A stretch of DNA of 48,836 nucleotides from Escherichia phage T1: sequence record NC_005833.1, one strand, 5' to 3'. How positions within the stretch are numbered: the stretch's first letter is position 1; the number at the start of each line of letters is the position of its first letter. Position numbers and translations under genes: made by a program. Below, piece after piece: positions 1-48,836 of the stretch. The notes beneath the pieces were generated by a model. That model was not told the DNA's origin, did not search any database, and saw nothing but the letters and a program-made list of their open reading frames with translations.

Positions 1-104
1 GTTGCATGGTGTGCAACTGTTGATGTGATTGTTGCTTAGAATGCAATGATTGTGAGAGGGGGGATCTAGTGTTACCAGGTTCGCCTGGTAGTCATCTCCA
101 TTTT

Positions 105-120
105 TAGCAAAAAGTGCTAT
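105..120 (-). promoter_or_regulatory. box copy near left end, reverse orientation, lacking a -10-like hexamer
   Basis: Plus strand TAGCAAAAAGTGCTAT; adjacent hairpin CCAGG ttcg CCTGG at 75-88. Confidence 0.35.
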
Positions 121-207
121 CGATTACGATTACGCTTGATTGCGTGTTAATCATTGTATATGATTTGCCTAAATCGCAATCGTATACAAAATTACGCCAA
201 ATTACGC

Positions 208-290
208 CTTATAATATACATATAGATATATGTATATATATAATATATAAGTGTTTTTTTTATTTATATATATAGATACTATTATTTGTA
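208..290. repeat. alternating AT-rich (TATATA-type) tract
   Basis: ataatatacatatagatatatgtatatatataatatataagtgttttttttatttatatatatagatac; a similar tract recurs at 30001-30070. Confidence 0.6.
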
Positions 291-396
291 ATATGGTTGT
301 ATAGCGTGTCTTTTATGTTAATCGTTGGATGCTCTGATTATGATGCTCATGTTTATATATACAGTAGTTTTATCGGCGCATATTTATTTAGGGAAA

Positions 397-423
397 TCGA
401 TTAACACGATTAACACGATTAAC
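397..423. repeat. tandem 9-bp iteron (CGATTAACA x3)
   Basis: cgattaacacgattaacacgattaacc read directly in the left intergenic region. Confidence 0.7.
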
Positions 424-538
424 CACACTTAAAATCGCCCCGCAGACCTTGACACATGCGGGTCGTCGTGTAACACTACGATTAGAGACACGGTGTTACA
501 TGTTAATCATGGTGTATATTGAAACTAAGGAGAAAGCT

Positions 539-1114
539 ATGAGTTCTTACCAGTCAGACGCAGTACAGGCAGCAATCAAGGCAGCTTACGAGAAGGCCGG
601 AGTAACGGTTGAGCAGCGACCGGAGGCAAAAGTGACCGATGTTATCCGGGCCGCCTGCGATCAGCTTTATGGTGATGGCGAGAATACCGAGTTCACATTC
701 GACGCGAATAAGATGGCTGAGGCCGCAGCAAGAAAGTCGATGCCAGACGCTGACGAACATGATGTTGCCAAAGGCGCCGAGTCCTGGTTGCTCGGGAAGA
801 CGGATGAGATTAACGAGAAGTTTAAATCCTCATTCATCACCCCGATCGTTTCTCGACACTTCTCCAAGATCGGCAAGTCGGTCAAGGTGAGCGTGACCAT
901 GAACGATGAGAAGTTGCGAGTCGTTACTATCTCAGTGAGTGACGAAGAAGTTCCGGTGAAGAAGCGCCGCAGCCGGAAAAAAGTCAGCCTGGCTGATTGT
1001 CTGGATTCGTTTGTTCCTGATGTTGATGATCTTGAGAAAGGCGACGTTACTGTAAGCACCGTGCGCGACCTGGTTCGCCAGATGAAAGCGCATATCGAAA
1101 AATGTGGACTGTAA
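539..1114 (+). CDS. hypothetical early protein, first gene of rightward early operon
   Basis: Track ORF 449..1114; start refined to ATG 539 preceded by AAGGAG; basic KKRRSRKK patch; no recognisable domain. Confidence 0.5.
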   Translation: MSSYQSDAVQAAIKAAYEKAGVTVEQRPEAKVTDVIRAACDQLYGDGENTEFTFDANKMAEAAARKSMPDADEHDVAKGAESWLLGKTDEINEKFKSSFITPIVSRHFSKIGKSVKVSVTMNDEKLRVVTISVSDEEVPVKKRRSRKKVSLADCLDSFVPDVDDLEKGDVTVSTVRDLVRQMKAHIEKCGL

Positions 1115-4947: not shown

Positions 4948-5478
4948 ATGGATAAAATCACAATTTGGGGCCAGACAATCAACCTGTTTCTCGGCACGCG
5001 CCGAGTGGCAATCTTTGACTTTGACGGGACACTTAGCGATGGATCTGGTCGACTTCACCTGCTGCCAACAAAGGATTTGCACTTGACTGAAAGCTGGTCT
5101 GAGTTTAACCGAGCGGCAATATTTGATAACCCAATCCAGAGCACGATCGATGTGATGAACTCTATGTTTGCCGCTGGGTATCATGTGATCATTTTAACCG
5201 GGCGAAGTGATGAGGTGCGTTACGCATCTGAGTTATGGCTTAAGCATCACGGCGCTCGATATGATTACTTAGTCATGCGACCGCATACCGACAACCGCAA
5301 AGACACGGTAATGAAAGAAGAGGCAGTGCGCGCTATCGGCATTGATAACATTCTTGCGGCTTGGGATGACTCAGTGAATATAATAAAAAAATTCAGAGAT
5401 CTAGGGATAACCACATATCAGGTTTGTGAATATGCCTGTGATAGTCGAGAGGATTTAAATAGTCATGGTGTCGATTGA
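4948..5478 (+). CDS. HAD-superfamily phosphatase (nucleotidase or polynucleotide 3'-phosphatase-like)
   Basis: HAD motif I FDFDGTL, motif II ILTGR, downstream K and WDDS; RBS GAGGAA. Confidence 0.6.
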   Translation: MDKITIWGQTINLFLGTRRVAIFDFDGTLSDGSGRLHLLPTKDLHLTESWSEFNRAAIFDNPIQSTIDVMNSMFAAGYHVIILTGRSDEVRYASELWLKHHGARYDYLVMRPHTDNRKDTVMKEEAVRAIGIDNILAAWDDSVNIIKKFRDLGITTYQVCEYACDSREDLNSHGVD

Positions 5479-5959
5479 TAACAAATCAATGGTAAGAGAG
5501 TTATTTACTTATTCTGACGGCGTTCTGTATTGGAAGGCCAAATCATCTAAATACAGTAGAGCTAAAATAGGAGGCGCGGCAGGAAGCAAGGATAAAGACG
5601 GATACATAATAATCAGAGTAAGAAACGAAACTAGAGGCGCTCACAGGCTTGTATGGATATACCATAATGGCAAGATACCTGATGGAATGGAGGTAGACCA
5701 TATGGATGGAGACATAACAAACAATAGAATAGAAAACCTAAGATTGGTAACGAGAACCATAAATAACAGGAATCAAAAAAAGAGATCTGATAACACAACC
5801 GGAGTATCCGGTGTAACTTTCATGAAAGATAGAGGAAAGTATAGGGCGCAAGTTAGAAACAAGAGACTCGGGCAGTTCGACACAATAGAAGAGGCCGCCA
5901 AAGCAGTAAAGGATGAGCGGGATAGATTAGGTTTATTCACAAAAAGACACGGGGTGTAA
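5465..5959 (+). CDS. HNH homing endonuclease with AP2-like DNA-binding domain
   Basis: YHNGKIPDGMEVDHMDGDITNNRIENL HNH core plus TGVSGV..KYRAQV AP2-like segment; AGA/ATA-rich codon usage unlike neighbours. Confidence 0.75.
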   Translation: MVSIDNKSMVRELFTYSDGVLYWKAKSSKYSRAKIGGAAGSKDKDGYIIIRVRNETRGAHRLVWIYHNGKIPDGMEVDHMDGDITNNRIENLRLVTRTINNRNQKKRSDNTTGVSGVTFMKDRGKYRAQVRNKRLGQFDTIEEAAKAVKDERDRLGLFTKRHGV

Positions 5960-29850: not shown

Positions 29851-30000
29851 TTGTATGTCCTCGTCGTTAGTGTGATTGCATTGTATGTCGCATTTACTTT
29901 TATTGCAATAGAGCGATTACAATTTTTTTCGTGTAACAGGCGTATATTTTTGTAACCGGAATGGGTGTTACAAAATCGCCTCCATCCGACCGCAGGGAGA

Positions 30001-30070
30001 TATGATAAAAACTCTATATAATATATATAGATAGATAATATTTAATTTTAGCTTTATATATATAATTATT
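30001..30070. repeat. second alternating AT-rich tract with flanking GTGTAACA-type repeats
   Basis: ctctatataatatatatagatagataatatttaattttagctttatatatataattattg; CGTGTAACAGG at 29929 and 30099. Confidence 0.6.
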
Positions 30071-30318
30071 GTTGTGTAACAGTTGTATATCGTGTAACAG
30101 GTGATTTGATTGATTCGTCAAATTTCTATCATGTATGTTCAAAATTTAATCAATCTGGATTCTATTTGTAGGTATCTCTGTATTTCTAATAAAAAGCGGT
30201 TACAAGTGTTACGCAATAGACAGCGCATAAAAATCTACTTAAGCCATTGATTCTGTTGATGCTGGTTGTAACTTGAGCAATATAGACACGCAATTACACA
30301 CTGATTACATGTATTCGA

Positions 30319-30346
30319 TTGACTAAACGCTGTTAATGGCTATAAT
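30319..30346 (+). promoter_or_regulatory. sigma70-like promoter for recombination operon
   Basis: TTGACT 30319-30324, 16-nt spacer, TATAAT 30341-30346, about 30 nt upstream of exonuclease start. Confidence 0.6.
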
Positions 30347-30377
30347 GGATTCATCGTAAACGAAGGAGATAAACGCA

Positions 30378-31442
30378 ATGTTCCAGGTATTCACATCAAG
30401 CCAGCTTTCTAACGACGAGTATCATAGAAACGAAGGTTGGGCGTCAGAGTATGTAAGCGGATCGAGTCTTGCAGAAATTTATCAGACCTGCCCTGCTAAC
30501 TGGAGATTCAAGAAGAACGAGACAACGAAAGCTCTGGAGTTCGGTACTCAGTCGCACACCAACTTTGAGAGTCGAGATCTGTTTACTGCAACGTATGCTA
30601 GATGCCCTGCTCCGTCAGAGTTTAAGGATCTGATTACTTCGCAGGCGGCGCTGGCAGCAAAATTAAAATCATTCGGCCTGAAAGGTACATCCGGTAAGCA
30701 GTACCCGGACCTCATCAAAATGATGGTTGATTGTGGTGAAGAACTCAACGTTCAATACCTGATTGAACTGATCGCAGAAGCTGAGGCCCGTGCTGAAGGA
30801 AAACAACTTGTTGACGCGGACAAATACGACGCTTGCATGAAGATGAGAGCCATCCTTGAGCAGAATCCCGATCATGAAGCGTGCATCAACAGTGAAACGG
30901 CGCAGCGTGAGATTTCAATCTTCGGTGAGATATCCGGCGTAAAAGTTAAGGTTCGACTTGACCATCTGGACTACAAAGAGAATGTTCCAGGTCGTGTCCT
31001 GACTGGTTATGATGAGAATGGCGATCCGGTATTTGAAGACGTAATTTTCCCGGAAGCACTGATTATCACAGATTTCAAAACTACGATGAGCGCCAACCCG
31101 TTAGAGTTCCCGAGACTGGCATACAATCACGGCTATTACCTGAAGATGGCATTGCAGCATGACCTGCTACGACGCGCAATCCAGGCTGGAGCTTTTGAAG
31201 GTAACTTCCCGGAAGACATTCCGATCGTGGTTCGATTGCTTGCGCAGGAGAAAAAAGAGCCTTATATCGCACTGGCTTACCGTATGACTATGGAGCAAAT
31301 CAGGATAGGTCGTAACCAGTACATTAGCGTAGTCCACACTTACAAGGCTTGCTCTGAAATGGATGTTTGGCCTGGGTACGCTGGCGACGCAAGCGAGATC
31401 GAACTTGAAACGCCATCATGGGTGCGTTACCAAAATAAGTAA
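30378..31442 (+). CDS. PD-(D/E)XK-type exonuclease (recombination exonuclease)
   Basis: 354-aa ORF; IITDFKTT motif consistent with a D..(D/E)xK nuclease core; sigma70-like promoter 30319-30346; first gene of exo-annealase-SSB set. Confidence 0.55.
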   Translation: MFQVFTSSQLSNDEYHRNEGWASEYVSGSSLAEIYQTCPANWRFKKNETTKALEFGTQSHTNFESRDLFTATYARCPAPSEFKDLITSQAALAAKLKSFGLKGTSGKQYPDLIKMMVDCGEELNVQYLIELIAEAEARAEGKQLVDADKYDACMKMRAILEQNPDHEACINSETAQREISIFGEISGVKVKVRLDHLDYKENVPGRVLTGYDENGDPVFEDVIFPEALIITDFKTTMSANPLEFPRLAYNHGYYLKMALQHDLLRRAIQAGAFEGNFPEDIPIVVRLLAQEKKEPYIALAYRMTMEQIRIGRNQYISVVHTYKACSEMDVWPGYAGDASEIELETPSWVRYQNK

Positions 31443-42010: not shown

Positions 42011-42027
42011 AACAAGAGGAGATTGCA

Positions 42028-42510
42028 ATGAACTGGCACGAGCATTACGAATATAGGGATGGTGTTCTATATCACAAGGTAAAGCCATGCAGAAGGCATG
42101 ATGTAAATATTGGGGATGTTGCTGGAAGGGTTGCCAAAAACGGCTATCACTATGTTGTTCACAAGAACAGGCCGTATAAGAGATCTCGAGTTATATGGGA
42201 GATGTTTAATGGTGAGATACCAGATGGTTTTGTTATAGATCATCTGAATCACAATGCCACCGATGATAGGATCGATAACCTTGAGTGTAAGCCAAGAAGA
42301 GAGAATATGGTTAATGTTAAGTTAAGGATTGATAGCACGACCGGAGTAACTGGCGTATCAAGAAAGAGGGATAACAAGTGGAGGGCGTACATAACAATTA
42401 TGGGTAAGCAGAAGTGCAAGAGCTTTGACACGTTTGAGGAAGCTTGCGCGCAGAGGATTGAATGGTCAGTAACTCATGATTTTCACCCAAATCACGGTGG
42501 AACATACTAA
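42028..42510 (+). CDS. HNH homing endonuclease with AP2-like domain
   Basis: GEIPDGFVIDHLNHNATDDRIDNL HNH core, TGVTGVS..KWRAYI AP2-like segment; AGA/AGG/ATA-rich codons. Confidence 0.75.
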   Translation: MNWHEHYEYRDGVLYHKVKPCRRHDVNIGDVAGRVAKNGYHYVVHKNRPYKRSRVIWEMFNGEIPDGFVIDHLNHNATDDRIDNLECKPRRENMVNVKLRIDSTTGVTGVSRKRDNKWRAYITIMGKQKCKSFDTFEEACAQRIEWSVTHDFHPNHGGTY

Positions 42511-44104: not shown

Positions 44105-44512
44105 TCAAATTCTTCTTTCGTAAGCTGGAGCCTTGCGCACAATTCGACGTTCCGATCTATCAATGTTTCTACGTTCGCCAAACAAGTCTTCATCACTCAT
44201 TTCTCCAATGTGCATCATTTCCCACGTATATCGATTGTTGTAGCCATCAATACACATCAGCTTCATCATTACCGGGCGCTTGATCTTTCCCTTGCACCAG
44301 TAAAATCCACCCTTGCAATCAAGATAACCCTCAGTCACGCAGCGTGCGCAAAACTCCTTAGACAGCGCGCTTGTAAATTCACGGCGAGTCATTCCGGCGG
44401 CCTTAGCAAATCGCTCACTTTCCTTGTGGGCGTATATAAATTTCGCTATGTGCTGTCGAGTGTATTTGTCGTAACCTTCGCAGAACCTGAACAGATCTAA
44501 AAGAAGAAGCAT
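44105..44512 (-). CDS. hypothetical protein (135 aa)
   Basis: Track reverse ORF downstream of P-loop NTPase gene; Cys-rich. Confidence 0.4.
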   Translation of the reverse strand: MLLLLDLFRFCEGYDKYTRQHIAKFIYAHKESERFAKAAGMTRREFTSALSKEFCARCVTEGYLDCKGGFYWCKGKIKRPVMMKLMCIDGYNNRYTWEMMHIGEMSDEDLFGERRNIDRSERRIVRKAPAYERRI

Positions 44513-44516
44513 ATTA

Positions 44517-46085
44517 TTAACCCATCAGTCGAGGATTGATGAAAACAATATCATCAATCCGGCAAGTGTAGTTCATCTCTTCGAGCGTGATCAGCAGGCT
44601 GTCGATTCGCTCAGCTACTTTTTGTTGACCGTTGAACGGCGTAACGTTACGGCACTTTGCAACAATGCTATGAATAGGTGCGCGACCTTTGTTCTTCTTT
44701 GCGATCTCAGTGATAACATCAATCAGCTTACGAGATTCAGCCTCATCACCAGCATACCCGGCGGCGCTGGCAGACGACAGATAGGTTCTGGAAAGCTCAT
44801 TGAAAATCATGATCGCTTCCTGCATTGTTTCAAGGTCAATCTCACGGTTGGAACGGTTCGGTGATTCACCCTCCCAGTTCTTGATTGTGTGAAGAACTGA
44901 AGCAATGCGCAAAGCGTGCTTATCGAACTTGCCGAGATGACCGCGTAGCATTGAGTGAGAGTATTTGCCCCCGGCTGCGAAATCCGGCTCCATAGCCTGG
45001 CGAGCAAGGTTTAATTCACGCATAGCATTACGGCTTACAGAGAGAACAACGTTGTCCTCCTTCATAATGTTGTGCACAAGTCGATAATATTTACTCACCA
45101 ATCCTCGATCGACTTCCTTATACAGTGCATCACCATTTTCATCGCAAAGAATACGAGTGCCTAAAAGAGGTTCCTCGCGAACCAATAGGAAACGCTCAGA
45201 TACACCGATACCGCGCTGGCCTGCGTCCATGATACCCTTGATTGTTTCATCCTGCGCAATGACGCAGATCGAACCGACCGGGCAAAGAGATAAGTTATTG
45301 TCCTGATTTGAACGCGCAACCTCCATATGGTTTTTATCCCACGCCTTGAGGATAAGCTCGCTGTTTGATTTCTTATCAGAACCGCCATAAGTCAGGCCAA
45401 GCAATGTATTTATTGCCGTTGCCTCATCAGAGATTACGGAAAAGTGGCCTTGAACAGCAGCTACTTTCGCAAGACCTTCCGGTGTAGGATCTGATACCGC
45501 GAAAACAATATCAGCCATCTTCTTGATCTTCTCTTCCAGTTTTTCCTTGTCCTCGTACAGCGCCGCCGTCGTGTTACCCTTCGGATCGTTTTTGATTTCC
45601 TTCTCGATCTGACGTAGCTGACTGGTTAAACGGATACGTTCCTTTTTGCGCTCTTCATTCAGTCTCTGAATCTCTGCGCGCATAGGTGTAATCGCCGCTG
45701 AGTTAATCGCGGATTTACCTGTTGATGGTGGCTGGCTAATCACCATATAAAGAGCGGTCGGTTGTTCTTCTCCGTGATATTGCACCCAAAACTTCCCTAG
45801 CATCGCGGCTGAGATGCACCCAATGAAATGAGCGTACGCAGACGAAACAGGAAACTGTACAGACTCAGCTTTTGCTTTTGCATATTCGAATACCAGGTTA
45901 TCGCCACCTAACGAAATCAGCGGGAACTTATCGTTTCCACTGTTGATATCGATCGGGTCTTGCCAAAACGAAACTGAATCCCCGTAGCTGTTTTCACGAA
46001 TTGCGATCGCCACCGGATTAACTCCAGTGCTATTTGCGATCTCAATAATCTGTTGGTAATTCAGTTTTGGCTTAATATTAAACAT
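44517..46085 (-). CDS. P-loop NTPase (possible replication-associated ATPase)
   Basis: Track ORF 44517..46148; start refined to Met 46085 (ATG sharing one base with HNH stop); Walker A-like QPPSTGKS. Confidence 0.55.
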   Translation of the reverse strand: MFNIKPKLNYQQIIEIANSTGVNPVAIAIRENSYGDSVSFWQDPIDINSGNDKFPLISLGGDNLVFEYAKAKAESVQFPVSSAYAHFIGCISAAMLGKFWVQYHGEEQPTALYMVISQPPSTGKSAINSAAITPMRAEIQRLNEERKKERIRLTSQLRQIEKEIKNDPKGNTTAALYEDKEKLEEKIKKMADIVFAVSDPTPEGLAKVAAVQGHFSVISDEATAINTLLGLTYGGSDKKSNSELILKAWDKNHMEVARSNQDNNLSLCPVGSICVIAQDETIKGIMDAGQRGIGVSERFLLVREEPLLGTRILCDENGDALYKEVDRGLVSKYYRLVHNIMKEDNVVLSVSRNAMRELNLARQAMEPDFAAGGKYSHSMLRGHLGKFDKHALRIASVLHTIKNWEGESPNRSNREIDLETMQEAIMIFNELSRTYLSSASAAGYAGDEAESRKLIDVITEIAKKNKGRAPIHSIVAKCRNVTPFNGQQKVAERIDSLLITLEEMNYTCRIDDIVFINPRLMG

Positions 46086-46624
46086 CACAATAAACTCCTT
46101 AGTTGACGGCGTGAATGATACACCGTCAATGGTACACGCGTTTTGCAAAAAGTGCTATTCGATCCGTGATTCTCATGAAAACCGTATAGCCTTTCCGCTT
46201 CCTTCCTTGCTTTAGCCGCTGCATCCAGCGTCATGAAGGTCCCTAAGTGTTTTGTCTTTTTATTTATGGTTATGTTTGCCGTGTATCTATTTGTTTTTTT
46301 ATTCCAATACACTCCCATAACTCCTGTGTTTGATGACACTACTCCCTTGTTTCTTAGGTTGTCTTGCCTAGTTACTAGCCTGAGATTCTCAATTCTGTTA
46401 TCGTCTCTTTCATGGTTTATGTGGTCTACATCCATTCCTTCTGGTATGTTTCCGTAGTGTATTTTCCATACTATTCGATGGGCGTATTCAAATACACCTC
46501 CTGGAAAACATATTGACCGATAACCTTTTTTATTAACAGTTCCGGCAAGTAGATTTCGTCTTCTTCCGATTCTCCACTCTTTCCAGTACAGTCTCCCGCT
46601 AACGTATTTCAGTTCATCTTTCAT
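46085..46624 (-). CDS. HNH homing endonuclease with AP2-like domain
   Basis: GNIPEGMDVDHINHERDDNRIENL core; AGA/ATA-rich codons; last 25 codons read through a box-hairpin element. Confidence 0.75.
   Translation of the reverse strand: MKDELKYVSGRLYWKEWRIGRRRNLLAGTVNKKGYRSICFPGGVFEYAHRIVWKIHYGNIPEGMDVDHINHERDDNRIENLRLVTRQDNLRNKGVVSSNTGVMGVYWNKKTNRYTANITINKKTKHLGTFMTLDAAAKARKEAERLYGFHENHGSNSTFCKTRVPLTVYHSRRQLRSLL
46100..46160 (-). promoter_or_regulatory. conserved box-hairpin element, reverse strand, inside 3' end of HNH ORF
   Basis: Reverse complement reads ATAGCACTTTTTGCAAAA, 22 nt, TATCAT, then RBS and ATG of P-loop NTPase gene. Confidence 0.55.
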
Positions 46625-48328: not shown

Positions 48329-48674
48329 GATCCGCTACGAATGAGTTAACGGTGATTGAATAGTCAGCCACGAAGCAAGGAGCAACACTGCCTGGCTCAG
48401 TGCGCATGAATGGTTTATTGAACTGAGTGATTACCTCGCCAGTATCGTTATCAATTAAGCGAGACGCGCCTAAGCGGTCCACCACGCGCGTTACGCGGTC
48501 CACGCACTCCATTACATCACTTACGTCATAATAGGCGGTTAGAGCGGCTATCATTGCCTTCTCTTGCTTGTTGTGAATCTTACGCGCAATGTTCTCTATC
48601 GCAACGTGCACTTTCTCGTCAGTCTGGATTACCGAGCTGGCTGAGAAGTCCAGATCTGTGAACTGCTTAAACAT
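48303..48674 (-). CDS. hypothetical protein (123 aa), first gene of leftward operon
   Basis: Track reverse ORF; GAGGAAAG RBS; preceded by box element 48690-48751. Confidence 0.45.
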   Translation of the reverse strand: MFKQFTDLDFSASSVIQTDEKVHVAIENIARKIHNKQEKAMIAALTAYYDVSDVMECVDRVTRVVDRLGASRLIDNDTGEVITQFNKPFMRTEPGSVAPCFVADYSITVNSFVADRVKEALYE

Positions 48675-48689
48675 AATACTTTCCTCGTT

Positions 48690-48751
48690 TACTGTTGATG
48701 TGATGAATCATACCCAGTAGACATGGATAAGTCGTTAGCAAAAAATGCTAT
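48690..48751 (-). promoter_or_regulatory. conserved box element, reverse strand, upstream of first leftward gene
   Basis: Reverse complement reads ATAGCATTTTTTGCTAA, 22 nt, GTATGA. Confidence 0.5.
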
Positions 48752-48836
48752 TCCAATAATTGCTCATTATTCCATCAATACTGGAATATCTGGAATAATC
48801 ACGATCATGATTGATCTCTAATGATGAGATGTGATT

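Follow-up and report, generated by a model that had tools for sequence, protein, structure and literature searches.

A composite control region across the record ends of coliphage T1, with a packaging-proximal block, a lineage-specific iteron cassette and an early promoter

The first 448 bases of the Escherichia phage T1 genome (NC_005833.1; the window is the whole stretch of 48,836 nucleotides (nt) that we analysed) belong to a divergent control region that is best read as a composite of three parts: a block close to the packaging site (pac), a cassette of short repeats (iterons), and a rightward early promoter. A preliminary description had presented bases 1–448 as a left terminal intergenic region of the kind typical of replication origins, packaging initiation sites or operators. 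These labels proved to suit different parts of the region. Packaging initiation fits bases 1 to about 100 together with the last ~100 nt of the record, on the grounds of homology to the pac end of phage TLS, the literature and a conservation that tracks the small terminase subunit (TerS), and does not fit the rest. Operator fits the early promoter with its inverted repeat (449–508), to which a second conserved promoter at 136–164 can be added, and not elsewhere. Replication origin fits 121–430 to the extent that conserved architecture, concerted replacement of repeats and the instability of an AT tract suggest it. Our tentative interpretation, held with slightly less than even confidence, is that a pac-proximal block adjoins a plasmid-like module of iterons and an unwinding element, which controls early transcription and is probably one of two origins. 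We favour it because the elements follow one another in a telling order: a promoter, the AT tract, the iterons, a promoter with an iteron-related operator, and a gene that co-varies with the iterons.

The window is the full coliphage T1 genome. Its length equals the published 48,836 base pairs (bp) (PMC5238451), and its first 1,200 bases are 99.8 per cent identical to and colinear with the Tunavirus T1 isolate MN153797. On the circular map, bases 1–538 and 48,675–48,836 form a single divergent non-coding region of ~700 bp, of which the stretch first described is the right-hand 448 nt. The last gene, on the minus strand, starts at 48,674, and the first gene on the plus strand has its ATG at 539, preceded by the ribosome-binding site AAGGAG (527–532). 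In nine related Tunavirus records that open elsewhere, the T1 record ends are contiguous and lie within a ~690-bp intergenic region between the leftward and rightward operons. The name ‘left terminal’ is therefore an artefact of the coordinate convention, as the region continues over the record ends. We aligned the intergenic loci of ten Tunavirus genomes (T1 and nine relatives), which fall into three iteron types: A (T1, ULIM2, and ISF002), B (the LeonhardEuler group), and C (AV106 and SH6). The non-coding block is conserved more strongly in this comparison than the adjoining genes. We rejected coding potential for the region, where open reading frames (ORFs) are short, derived from AT-rich sequence and broken by indels in the relatives; ORFs that automated pipelines annotated across the record junction in relatives do not hold up. 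Neither GC skew, which tracks the direction of transcription and does not pinpoint an origin, nor GATC sites, which are not clustered (three sites, at 63, 48803, and 48813, against ~3.4 expected), mark out the region.

Repeats are concentrated at this end of the genome. The genome has fifteen exact tandem arrays with units of 6–12 nt and a length of 14 nt or more. Four of them, among which are the two longest, fall within the first 448 nt, and none of 1,000 dinucleotide-preserving shuffles reached three arrays there, so the features listed in the preliminary description exceed chance. Its tandem repeats are present with small corrections. What had been given as two copies of CGATTACG at 121–135 is a repeat, but one of CGATTA (2.3 copies, 121–134, plus strand) whose duplication occurs only in T1 and ULIM2. 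The two copies of AAATTACGCC on the plus strand occupy 189–208, one nucleotide from the range 190–209 first reported, and the second copy is absent from type-B relatives. The third array, described as three copies of CGATTAACA, consists of 2.9 tandem 9-bp iterons at 398–423 on the plus strand, 26–51 nt upstream of the −35 hexamer of the early promoter. Two of these three tandem repeats, and the hairpin treated below, are not conserved in relatives. Dispersed copies had been overlooked. Five of the six copies of GATTAACA in the genome fall at 145–508, against 0.09 expected, with a further degenerate copy at 417. Among them are inverted copies (minus strand) at 145–152 and 316–323, both reading TGTTAATC on the plus strand, and at 501–508 in the leader of the first gene. 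The copy at 145–152 lies within the spacer of the promoter at 136–164, where a type-B relative has its own motif at ~155, and the copy at 316–323 is replaced in LeonhardEuler and AV106 by the motif of each lineage.

This replacement extends to the whole cassette between 121 and 538. The LeonhardEuler group carries CTAGACA at positions equivalent to the T1 iterons (four of the five genome copies are in the region), AV106 and SH6 carry CGGTTGCA at such positions, and TLS carries CGTGAAC (or, as it can also be written, GTGAACA) in equivalent positions and orientations. Where T1 has its array at 398–423, relatives have two copies of CTAGACAG, three of TCGGTTGCA, or, in TLS, two of CGTGAACA. None of the iteron regions of T1, LeonhardEuler, AV106, and TLS carries the motif of another lineage, and the orientation and arrangement of copies are alike in all four. 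In Klebsiella phage Sushi, TTTGTGG occurs eight times in the 2.66-kb stretch examined, always within its 704-bp intergenic region. Concerted replacement at dispersed sites is what would be expected of binding sites for a lineage-specific, sequence-specific protein, and we infer that such a protein binds the iterons.

Iteron copies flank, on both sides, an AT tract at 203–302 that is a candidate DNA-unwinding element. The alternating AT tract of the preliminary description (208–290) is real, with 11 per cent GC in the 90-nt window from 209. The 100-nt window from 203 is the least stable in the genome (ΔG of −97.0 against a genome mean of −136.8, with a standard deviation (sd) of 6.8). This tract and that of a second module at ~30 kb are the two least stable windows in each of the five genomes tested (T1, ISF002, LeonhardEuler, AV106, and TLS), at 5–6 sd under the genome mean. 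We found no match to the Fis consensus in the region.

Two predicted promoters face rightward. The first, P2 (136–164, plus strand), was predicted by a promoter scan as a sigma-70-type TTGATT-N17-TATGAT that reads into the AT tract and is followed by no ORF. A promoter of this kind (TTGnnn-N17-TAnnnT) is found at the identical position in nine of the ten genomes, always with a 17-nt spacer, although the hexamers themselves differ (TTGATT/TATGAT, TTGTCA/TAGAAT, TTGACC/TACAAT, and TTGTAA/TACCAT). The second, the early promoter P_E (449–477, plus strand), reads TTGACA-N17-AACACT; its spacer ends in TGT (469–471), which supplies an extended −10 TG, and the −10 hexamer is at 472–477. The spacing of −35 and −10, the conservation, the ribosome-binding site AAGGAG, and the gene that follows are all those of a sigma-70 promoter. 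Nine of the ten genomes keep TTGAC (seven as TTGACA and two as TTGACG), and types A and B both have TGT with a −10-like hexamer. The remaining genome, of Shigella phage vB_SsoS_008 (L006), has a deletion at this point. This phage also lacks the P2 segment and has type-B iterons and a type-B first gene, yet a T1-type leader fragment, ATGTTAATCATGGTGTATATTGAAACTAAGGAGAAAGC (aligned to T1 ~495–545), is inserted upstream of its own leader, a footprint of recombination between cassette types.

An operator-like inverted repeat (CGTGTAACAC / GTGTTACA, 467–500) covers the −10 hexamer of P_E and about +10 to +17. Its core arms, TGTAACAC at 469–476 and GTGTTACA at 493–500, are the inverted pair noted originally, which lies beyond the 1–448 range given for the region. 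The arms shift together between lineages, from TGTAACAC/GTGTTACA in type A to TGTCACAA/TTATGACA in type B, with six to seven of eight positions still complementary. The left arm CGTGTAACAC also has eight of ten bases in common with the iteron unit aCGATTAACAc. TGTAACA occurs six times in the genome, always either in this inverted repeat (469 and 494) or in the second module.

The second module, R2, occupies the intergenic region between cor and recE (29,852–30,378). There, iterons of the sequence GTGTAACA stand on both sides of the AT tract that ranks second in instability in the genome, and T1 219–309 aligns with 30015–30095 within it. The promoter that follows, TTGACT-N16-TATAAT (30319–30346), agrees with the consensus at eleven of twelve positions. 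TLS has a counterpart of R2, and the motif (G/T)GAACA is common to both TLS modules. The left-end module (R1) and R2 thus appear to be paralogous, and the family to have two modules of iterons and an AT tract. The R2 iterons are conserved in all three Tunavirus lineages examined, as are the replication proteins.

We compared 76 T1 proteins by tblastn with one genome per lineage and TLS to identify candidate readers of the iterons. Only one of them tracks iteron type: gp77 (T1p77), the 191-amino-acid product of the first early gene (539–1114, plus strand), which is 90 per cent identical within its lineage and 53 per cent in the second and gives no BLAST hit in the third. The first gene of the third lineage is nevertheless a remote homologue (hhalign probability 97 per cent), and the gp77 alleles form one family. 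The N-terminal part of the protein is variable and acidic; the centre, which includes the stretch KKRRSRKK, and the C-terminus are conserved and basic. The AlphaFold model of gp77 (predicted local distance difference test score 75) contains a helix–helix–β-hairpin segment at residues 88–134, and matches to winged-helix-like folds are weak. A Foldseek search of the PDB returned nothing significant, a search of viral models returned only uncharacterized Drexlerviridae proteins, PHROGs gave families of unknown function only, and Pfam recognized no DNA-binding domain. Among 1.8 billion proteins the family comprises ten clusters, all from one small phage family; it is fast-evolving and restricted to Drexlerviridae. 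We regard gp77 as a candidate iteron reader on the basis of its co-variation. The only Pfam matches, to DUF7174 and to the DNA mimic AcrF2, are sub-threshold and leave a role in anti-defence possible.

The other proteins that might bind DNA were rejected as lineage-specific iteron readers. A DUF3987 helicase-like protein, an SF2 helicase, the primase, a Cro/XRE-like protein, and T1p10 are 95–100 per cent identical across three Tunavirus lineages whose iterons differ, and for that reason we set them aside for R1; they could read the conserved iterons of the second module. In this connection, the leftward early operon, which begins at the control region, ends with the 522-amino-acid DUF3987 protein (44517–46085, minus strand), helicase-like and annotated as an ATPase in TLS, and next to it is a small protein (44105–44512, minus strand) annotated in TLS as containing a helix-turn-helix. 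Both products are 97–100 per cent identical across Tunavirus and are candidate readers of the GTGTAACA iterons.

To the left of the cassette, an almost invariant block of ~220 bp straddles coordinate 1 (48,733–48,836 and 1–120) and is kept in nine of nine aligned Tunavirus loci. AV106 and SH6 retain it and yet share nothing with T1 in the alignment from position 121 on. Its right half (1–120), the candidate pac or terminase-recognition region, contains TGATTG repeats, a palindrome (TTGCAtggtgTGCAA, 2–16), and a 14-nt direct repeat, GATGTGATTGTTGC, that is unique in the T1 genome (48828–48836/1–5 and 22–35). Its left half (48733–48836) contains a degenerate copy of a direct-repeat element described below, a leftward promoter, and four copies of TATTCCA/TGGAATA, two per orientation (at 48749, 48768, 48782, and 48791), upstream of that promoter. 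Of the block, Klebsiella Webervirus phages keep at the DNA level only the segment with the direct repeat and TGGAATA, and 159 Klebsiella phage records were among those matching a query with the block. The TATTCCA/TGGAATA copies (48749–48797) possibly serve a widely conserved regulator as its operator.

The block also holds the hairpin CCAGG-ttcg-CCTGG at 75–88, correctly reported in the preliminary description and extending in T1 to a 7-bp stem (TACCAGG-ttcg-CCTGGTA, 73–90). The stem is perfect in T1 only: all nine relatives have a C/T mismatch in it, some have further breaks, and there are no compensatory changes. The sequence of the hairpin is conserved and its structure is not. We rejected the hairpin as a terminator on either strand, as no T run adjoins it. 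Immediately after it (65–73, minus strand) is the 9-mer GTAACACTA, which recurs at 470–478 (plus strand) in the −10 region of P_E.

Several lines of evidence connect the block with packaging. T1 packages its DNA by the headful mechanism (PMC5238451, PMC11447400). Published work puts its pac upstream of terS (PMC11417361) and in the matching untranslated region with which the genome opens (PMC7718038). In TLS, which belongs to a different subfamily, restriction analysis located the pac end at the start of the record, an assignment that consists of restriction mapping and a 6-nt resemblance to the P22 pac (PMC11447400). HindIII first cuts the TLS sequence at 5,876, and EcoRV first cuts it at 2,733, in agreement with the reported 5.88-kb pac–HindIII and 2.7-kb fragments; TLS packaging therefore begins at the record start and proceeds rightward. 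The order of elements around the TLS pac is that of T1: the direct-repeat element, a palindromic repeat, and a field of TGATT repeats. T1 TerS belongs to the P22 gp3 family (Pfam GP3_package, 7.4e-10); its identity is 99–100 per cent wherever a lineage has kept the block and 50 per cent in TLS, whose block differs in sequence. The block (48733–120) thus co-varies with TerS, whereas the iteron cassette (121–430) varies while TerS stays constant. The records of relatives open at T1-equivalent positions 55 (Shfl1), 56 (S2_02), 69 (SH2), ~84 (IME347), and 89 (IME167 and Henu5_2), and others start at T1 position 1 or 2, probably following the T1 convention. The breakpoints at 55–89, a zone of 35 nt in the records of independent relatives, hint at physical ends and are circumstantial. 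From homology and the literature we conclude that bases 1 to ~100 probably belong to the region of terminase recognition and cleavage, and that these comparisons give a probable position for pac. Most likely, the small terminase would recognize pac within ~48,733–120 and make the first headful cut there, after which packaging would proceed rightward via the early genes toward terS, 8.4 kb away.

The direct-repeat element in the block is one of a genome-wide set. Direct repeats of 21 nt (aaATAGCACnnnTTGnTAAAA) have been described in the intergenic regions of TLS and T1 (PMC11447400). Allowing up to two mismatches, we found 21 copies of their 19-nt core, ATAGCACnnnTTGnTAAAA, in T1, against 0.16 expected (sites include 1450, 2269, 3535, 4344, 4864, 6531, 36444, 38953, 41956, and 47099). 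The copies form a rigid module in which the repeat is followed after exactly 19 nt (20 in one or two copies) by a −10-like hexamer, then a ribosome-binding site and a gene. Most copies have the −10 at this fixed spacing (fourteen by eye), often with an extended −10 TG(n) and within a hairpin loop, and the ribosome-binding site and ATG come ~30 nt further on. The module resembles a dedicated promoter class with an upstream element at about −50 to −32 in place of the normal −35. A perfect copy on the minus strand at 102–120 (19 of 19 matches to ATAGCACnnnTTGnTAAAA) had escaped the preliminary description. It has GAACCT at +19 instead of a −10, and no minus-strand ORF precedes the next direct-repeat element; without a −10 at the fixed spacing or a gene downstream, we count it as an orphan and not as a canonical member. 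The degenerate copy at 48733–48751 (minus strand) has both a −10 and a gene. With the leftward −10 TATGAT at 48707–48712 (minus strand), retained in relatives as TATGAT, TATAGT, or TATTAT, it forms the promoter of the first minus-strand gene (ATG 48674).

These parts can be assembled into a provisional mechanism for the cassette. A lineage-specific DNA-binding protein, most likely gp77, would bind the iterons and the operator, and this binding would throttle both rightward promoters. Together, binding and the transcription that enters the AT tract might then open the tract, which with R2 would make a pair of origin-like sites. From the architecture and the co-variation we infer both the origin activity and the role of gp77 as iteron binder.

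A number of observations weigh against this account. The iterons are 8–9 bp long with 9-bp spacing, compared with 17–22 bp for classical plasmid iterons, and bases 48601–600 contain no DnaA box (TTWTNCACA or a relaxed form) and no integration host factor consensus. An AT-rich stretch ahead of a strong promoter may have a role in transcription alone. R2, with iterons conserved alongside the replication proteins, is no weaker a candidate for the primary origin. The co-variation of gp77 may be plain linkage within a swapped cassette, as its gene adjoins the iterons, and the first genes of TLS and Sushi have no detectable homology to gp77. The classical DNA-negative mutants of T1, in genes 1 and 2, lie at the opposite end of the genetic map, which makes it probable that replication does not require gp77. 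The accessible literature holds no experiment that places a T1-family origin anywhere; the TLS paper states that the TLS genome lacks such repeats and the SU57 paper found no origin, in searches that looked for oriC-like or lambda-like features. On the packaging side, we found no pac cut for T1 at nucleotide level in the accessible literature, and one of the breakpoints comes from a record (S2_02) with a ~127-bp terminal overlap typical of an assembler.

The main rival to an origin is transcriptional control alone, which we consider rather unlikely as a full account and which the present analysis does not separate from the origin reading. The iterons and the inverted repeat would then be operators for an early regulator, gp77 or another protein, that shuts off or times the two promoters, and the AT tract would be a curved or UP-like element or a site for a nucleoid protein that enhances or silences them, with no origin present. 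Iteron copies are placed as operators might be, in the P2 spacer (145–152), at about −87 to −62 of P_E, and in the leader (501–508), with the inverted repeat over the −10. Both AT-rich modules lie upstream of strong sigma-70 promoters (that of R2 being the eleven-of-twelve match), a swapped cassette of operator and regulator is the classic pattern of phage immunity regions, and a gp77 that is dispensable for DNA synthesis, as it probably is, would be no obstacle. What this leaves unexplained is the AT tracts, which are 150–250 nt upstream of the strong promoters, too distant for UP elements, and whose extreme instability is kept in five genomes despite differing flanks. The conserved P2, moreover, reads into the tract with no ORF downstream, and the overall order of elements matches that of iteron replicons.

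The other explanations account for less of the region. That P2 gives rise to a small non-coding RNA or leader, an AT-rich transcript of ~90 nt ending at the T8 run at 258–265, or that a leftward RNA starts from the orphan element and crosses the conserved block, is improbable. P2 is indeed conserved with no ORF after it, and the T8 run comes after AT-rich palindromes. Against an RNA, the whole T1 genome has no Rfam family at gathering thresholds, no covariation backs a fold, the sole GC hairpin is not structurally conserved, the orphan direct repeat lacks a −10 at the fixed spacing, and 10 nt are deleted right after P2 in type-B relatives. Slightly less probable still is that all of 1–448 is pac, as an extended region of terminase recognition and DNA bending like pacL/pacR of SPP1. 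The stretch does adjoin the block to which the mapped pac end of TLS aligns, and the pac regions of other phages hold repeated boxes and bent DNA. However, TerS and the large subunit TerL are 98.9–100 per cent identical in lineages A, B, and C while the iterons are wholly different, and because the terminase is constant where the iterons vary, a whole-region pac is unlikely; AV106 and SH6 share nothing with T1 past 120, and the paralogous module lies at 30 kb, where no pac is known. We give the least credence to the idea that the repeats are functionless products of slippage in unconstrained, low-complexity intergenic DNA. Two tandem duplications and the perfect hairpin are not conserved, as this would predict. 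It does not fit an array count that none of the 1,000 shuffles matched, a motif enriched ~50-fold, a non-coding block conserved above its flanking genes, or a concerted replacement of motifs at dispersed sites and in both orientations across Tunavirus types A–C, whose layout TLS and Sushi share. There is little to support either the chance or the structured-RNA reading.

Outside the control region, T1 carries three HNH/homing endonuclease genes (5465–5959, 42014–42496, and 46085–46624) that are missing from ISF002, LeonhardEuler, and AV106, save for a 14 per cent fragment matching the third. The absence of these genes from relatives agrees with a published remark.

The pac-proximal location of the region is already established for T1 and TLS. 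In the accessible literature, which does not include the original T1 and Rtp genome papers (Roberts et al. 2004, Wietzorrek et al. 2006), we found no description of the iteron cassette, its concerted replacement across genera, the promoter reading into the AT tract, the internal paralogue, or the co-variation of gp77, and no mapped origin or transcription start sites for the T1 family. T1 belongs to the original set of T phages, and phages related to it are frequent candidates for therapy and frequent contaminants in laboratories, yet the origin of the family has never been mapped. The analysis offers two short conserved targets for it, 121–540 and 29,852–30,378, along with one candidate binding protein and a predicted swapping of specificity. 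The distinction between the probable pac block and the cassette is of use when T1-like phages are engineered, when transducible plasmids are built, and when a meaningful zero point is sought for the coordinates of these genomes. A much bolder generalization, which we offer as speculation and think unlikely, is that T1-like phages (Tunavirus, Tlsvirus, and Webervirus) carry an exchangeable, plasmid-style iteron replicon at the end of the packaged chromosome. The hypervariable first early protein, in Tunavirus of the gp77 family, would then be a new small winged-helix-like initiator and autoregulator of lineage-specific 7–9-bp iterons and the operator, firing one of two paralogous origins (R1 at the left end, and R2). 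If so, origin specificity would be a swappable module, as with lambda O and ori; if only the transcriptional reading is true, the region would be the family’s master switch of early control.

One close parallel is TLS. Like that of T1, its pac region is a divergent intergenic site between early operons, several kb upstream of a terS of the P22 gp3 type. The two phages share the flanking direct-repeat element and the field of TGATT(G/T) repeats, and TLS packages rightward. Their sequences are only patchily similar, with two copies of TAGACCGATTGGTC in TLS where T1 has TGGAATA repeats. Among transcription-activated origins (the T7 primary origin, T4 oriF and ori(uvsY), and lambda ori via pR), the likeness is in a promoter ~40 nt upstream of an AT-rich tract with no gene between them. 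Unlike in those systems, P2 is a predicted host sigma-70 promoter, and an R-loop or primer RNA would be hypothetical here.

The origins of Staphylococcus aureus pathogenicity islands (SaPIs) are a further parallel. Work by Ubeda and colleagues in 2007 reportedly described short repeat sets flanking an AT-rich region of ~80–90 bp, with a specificity that differs between related elements. SPP1, for its part, has two related origin sites per genome (oriL and oriR). T1 resembles the former in its repeats flanking an AT tract and its lineage specificity, and the latter in having two related origin-like sites. The SaPI reader is a helicase-type Rep, whereas in T1 the DUF3987 protein and the SF2 helicase are 97–99.6 per cent identical across lineages with differing R1 iterons. 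The iteron plasmids (F ori2/RepE, pSC101, P1 oriR, and pPS10) differ from T1 in their longer repeats (17–22 bp against 8–9 bp); T1 also has no DnaA box, its gp77 carries no Rep_3 or other Rep signature, and the phage is virulent, with a primase and helicases of its own. They nonetheless present the same set of parts, namely an AT tract, iterons, a promoter under an iteron-related inverted repeat, and a gene for a binding protein, and in T1 lineages, as in these plasmids, the iteron and the gene for the candidate protein change together.

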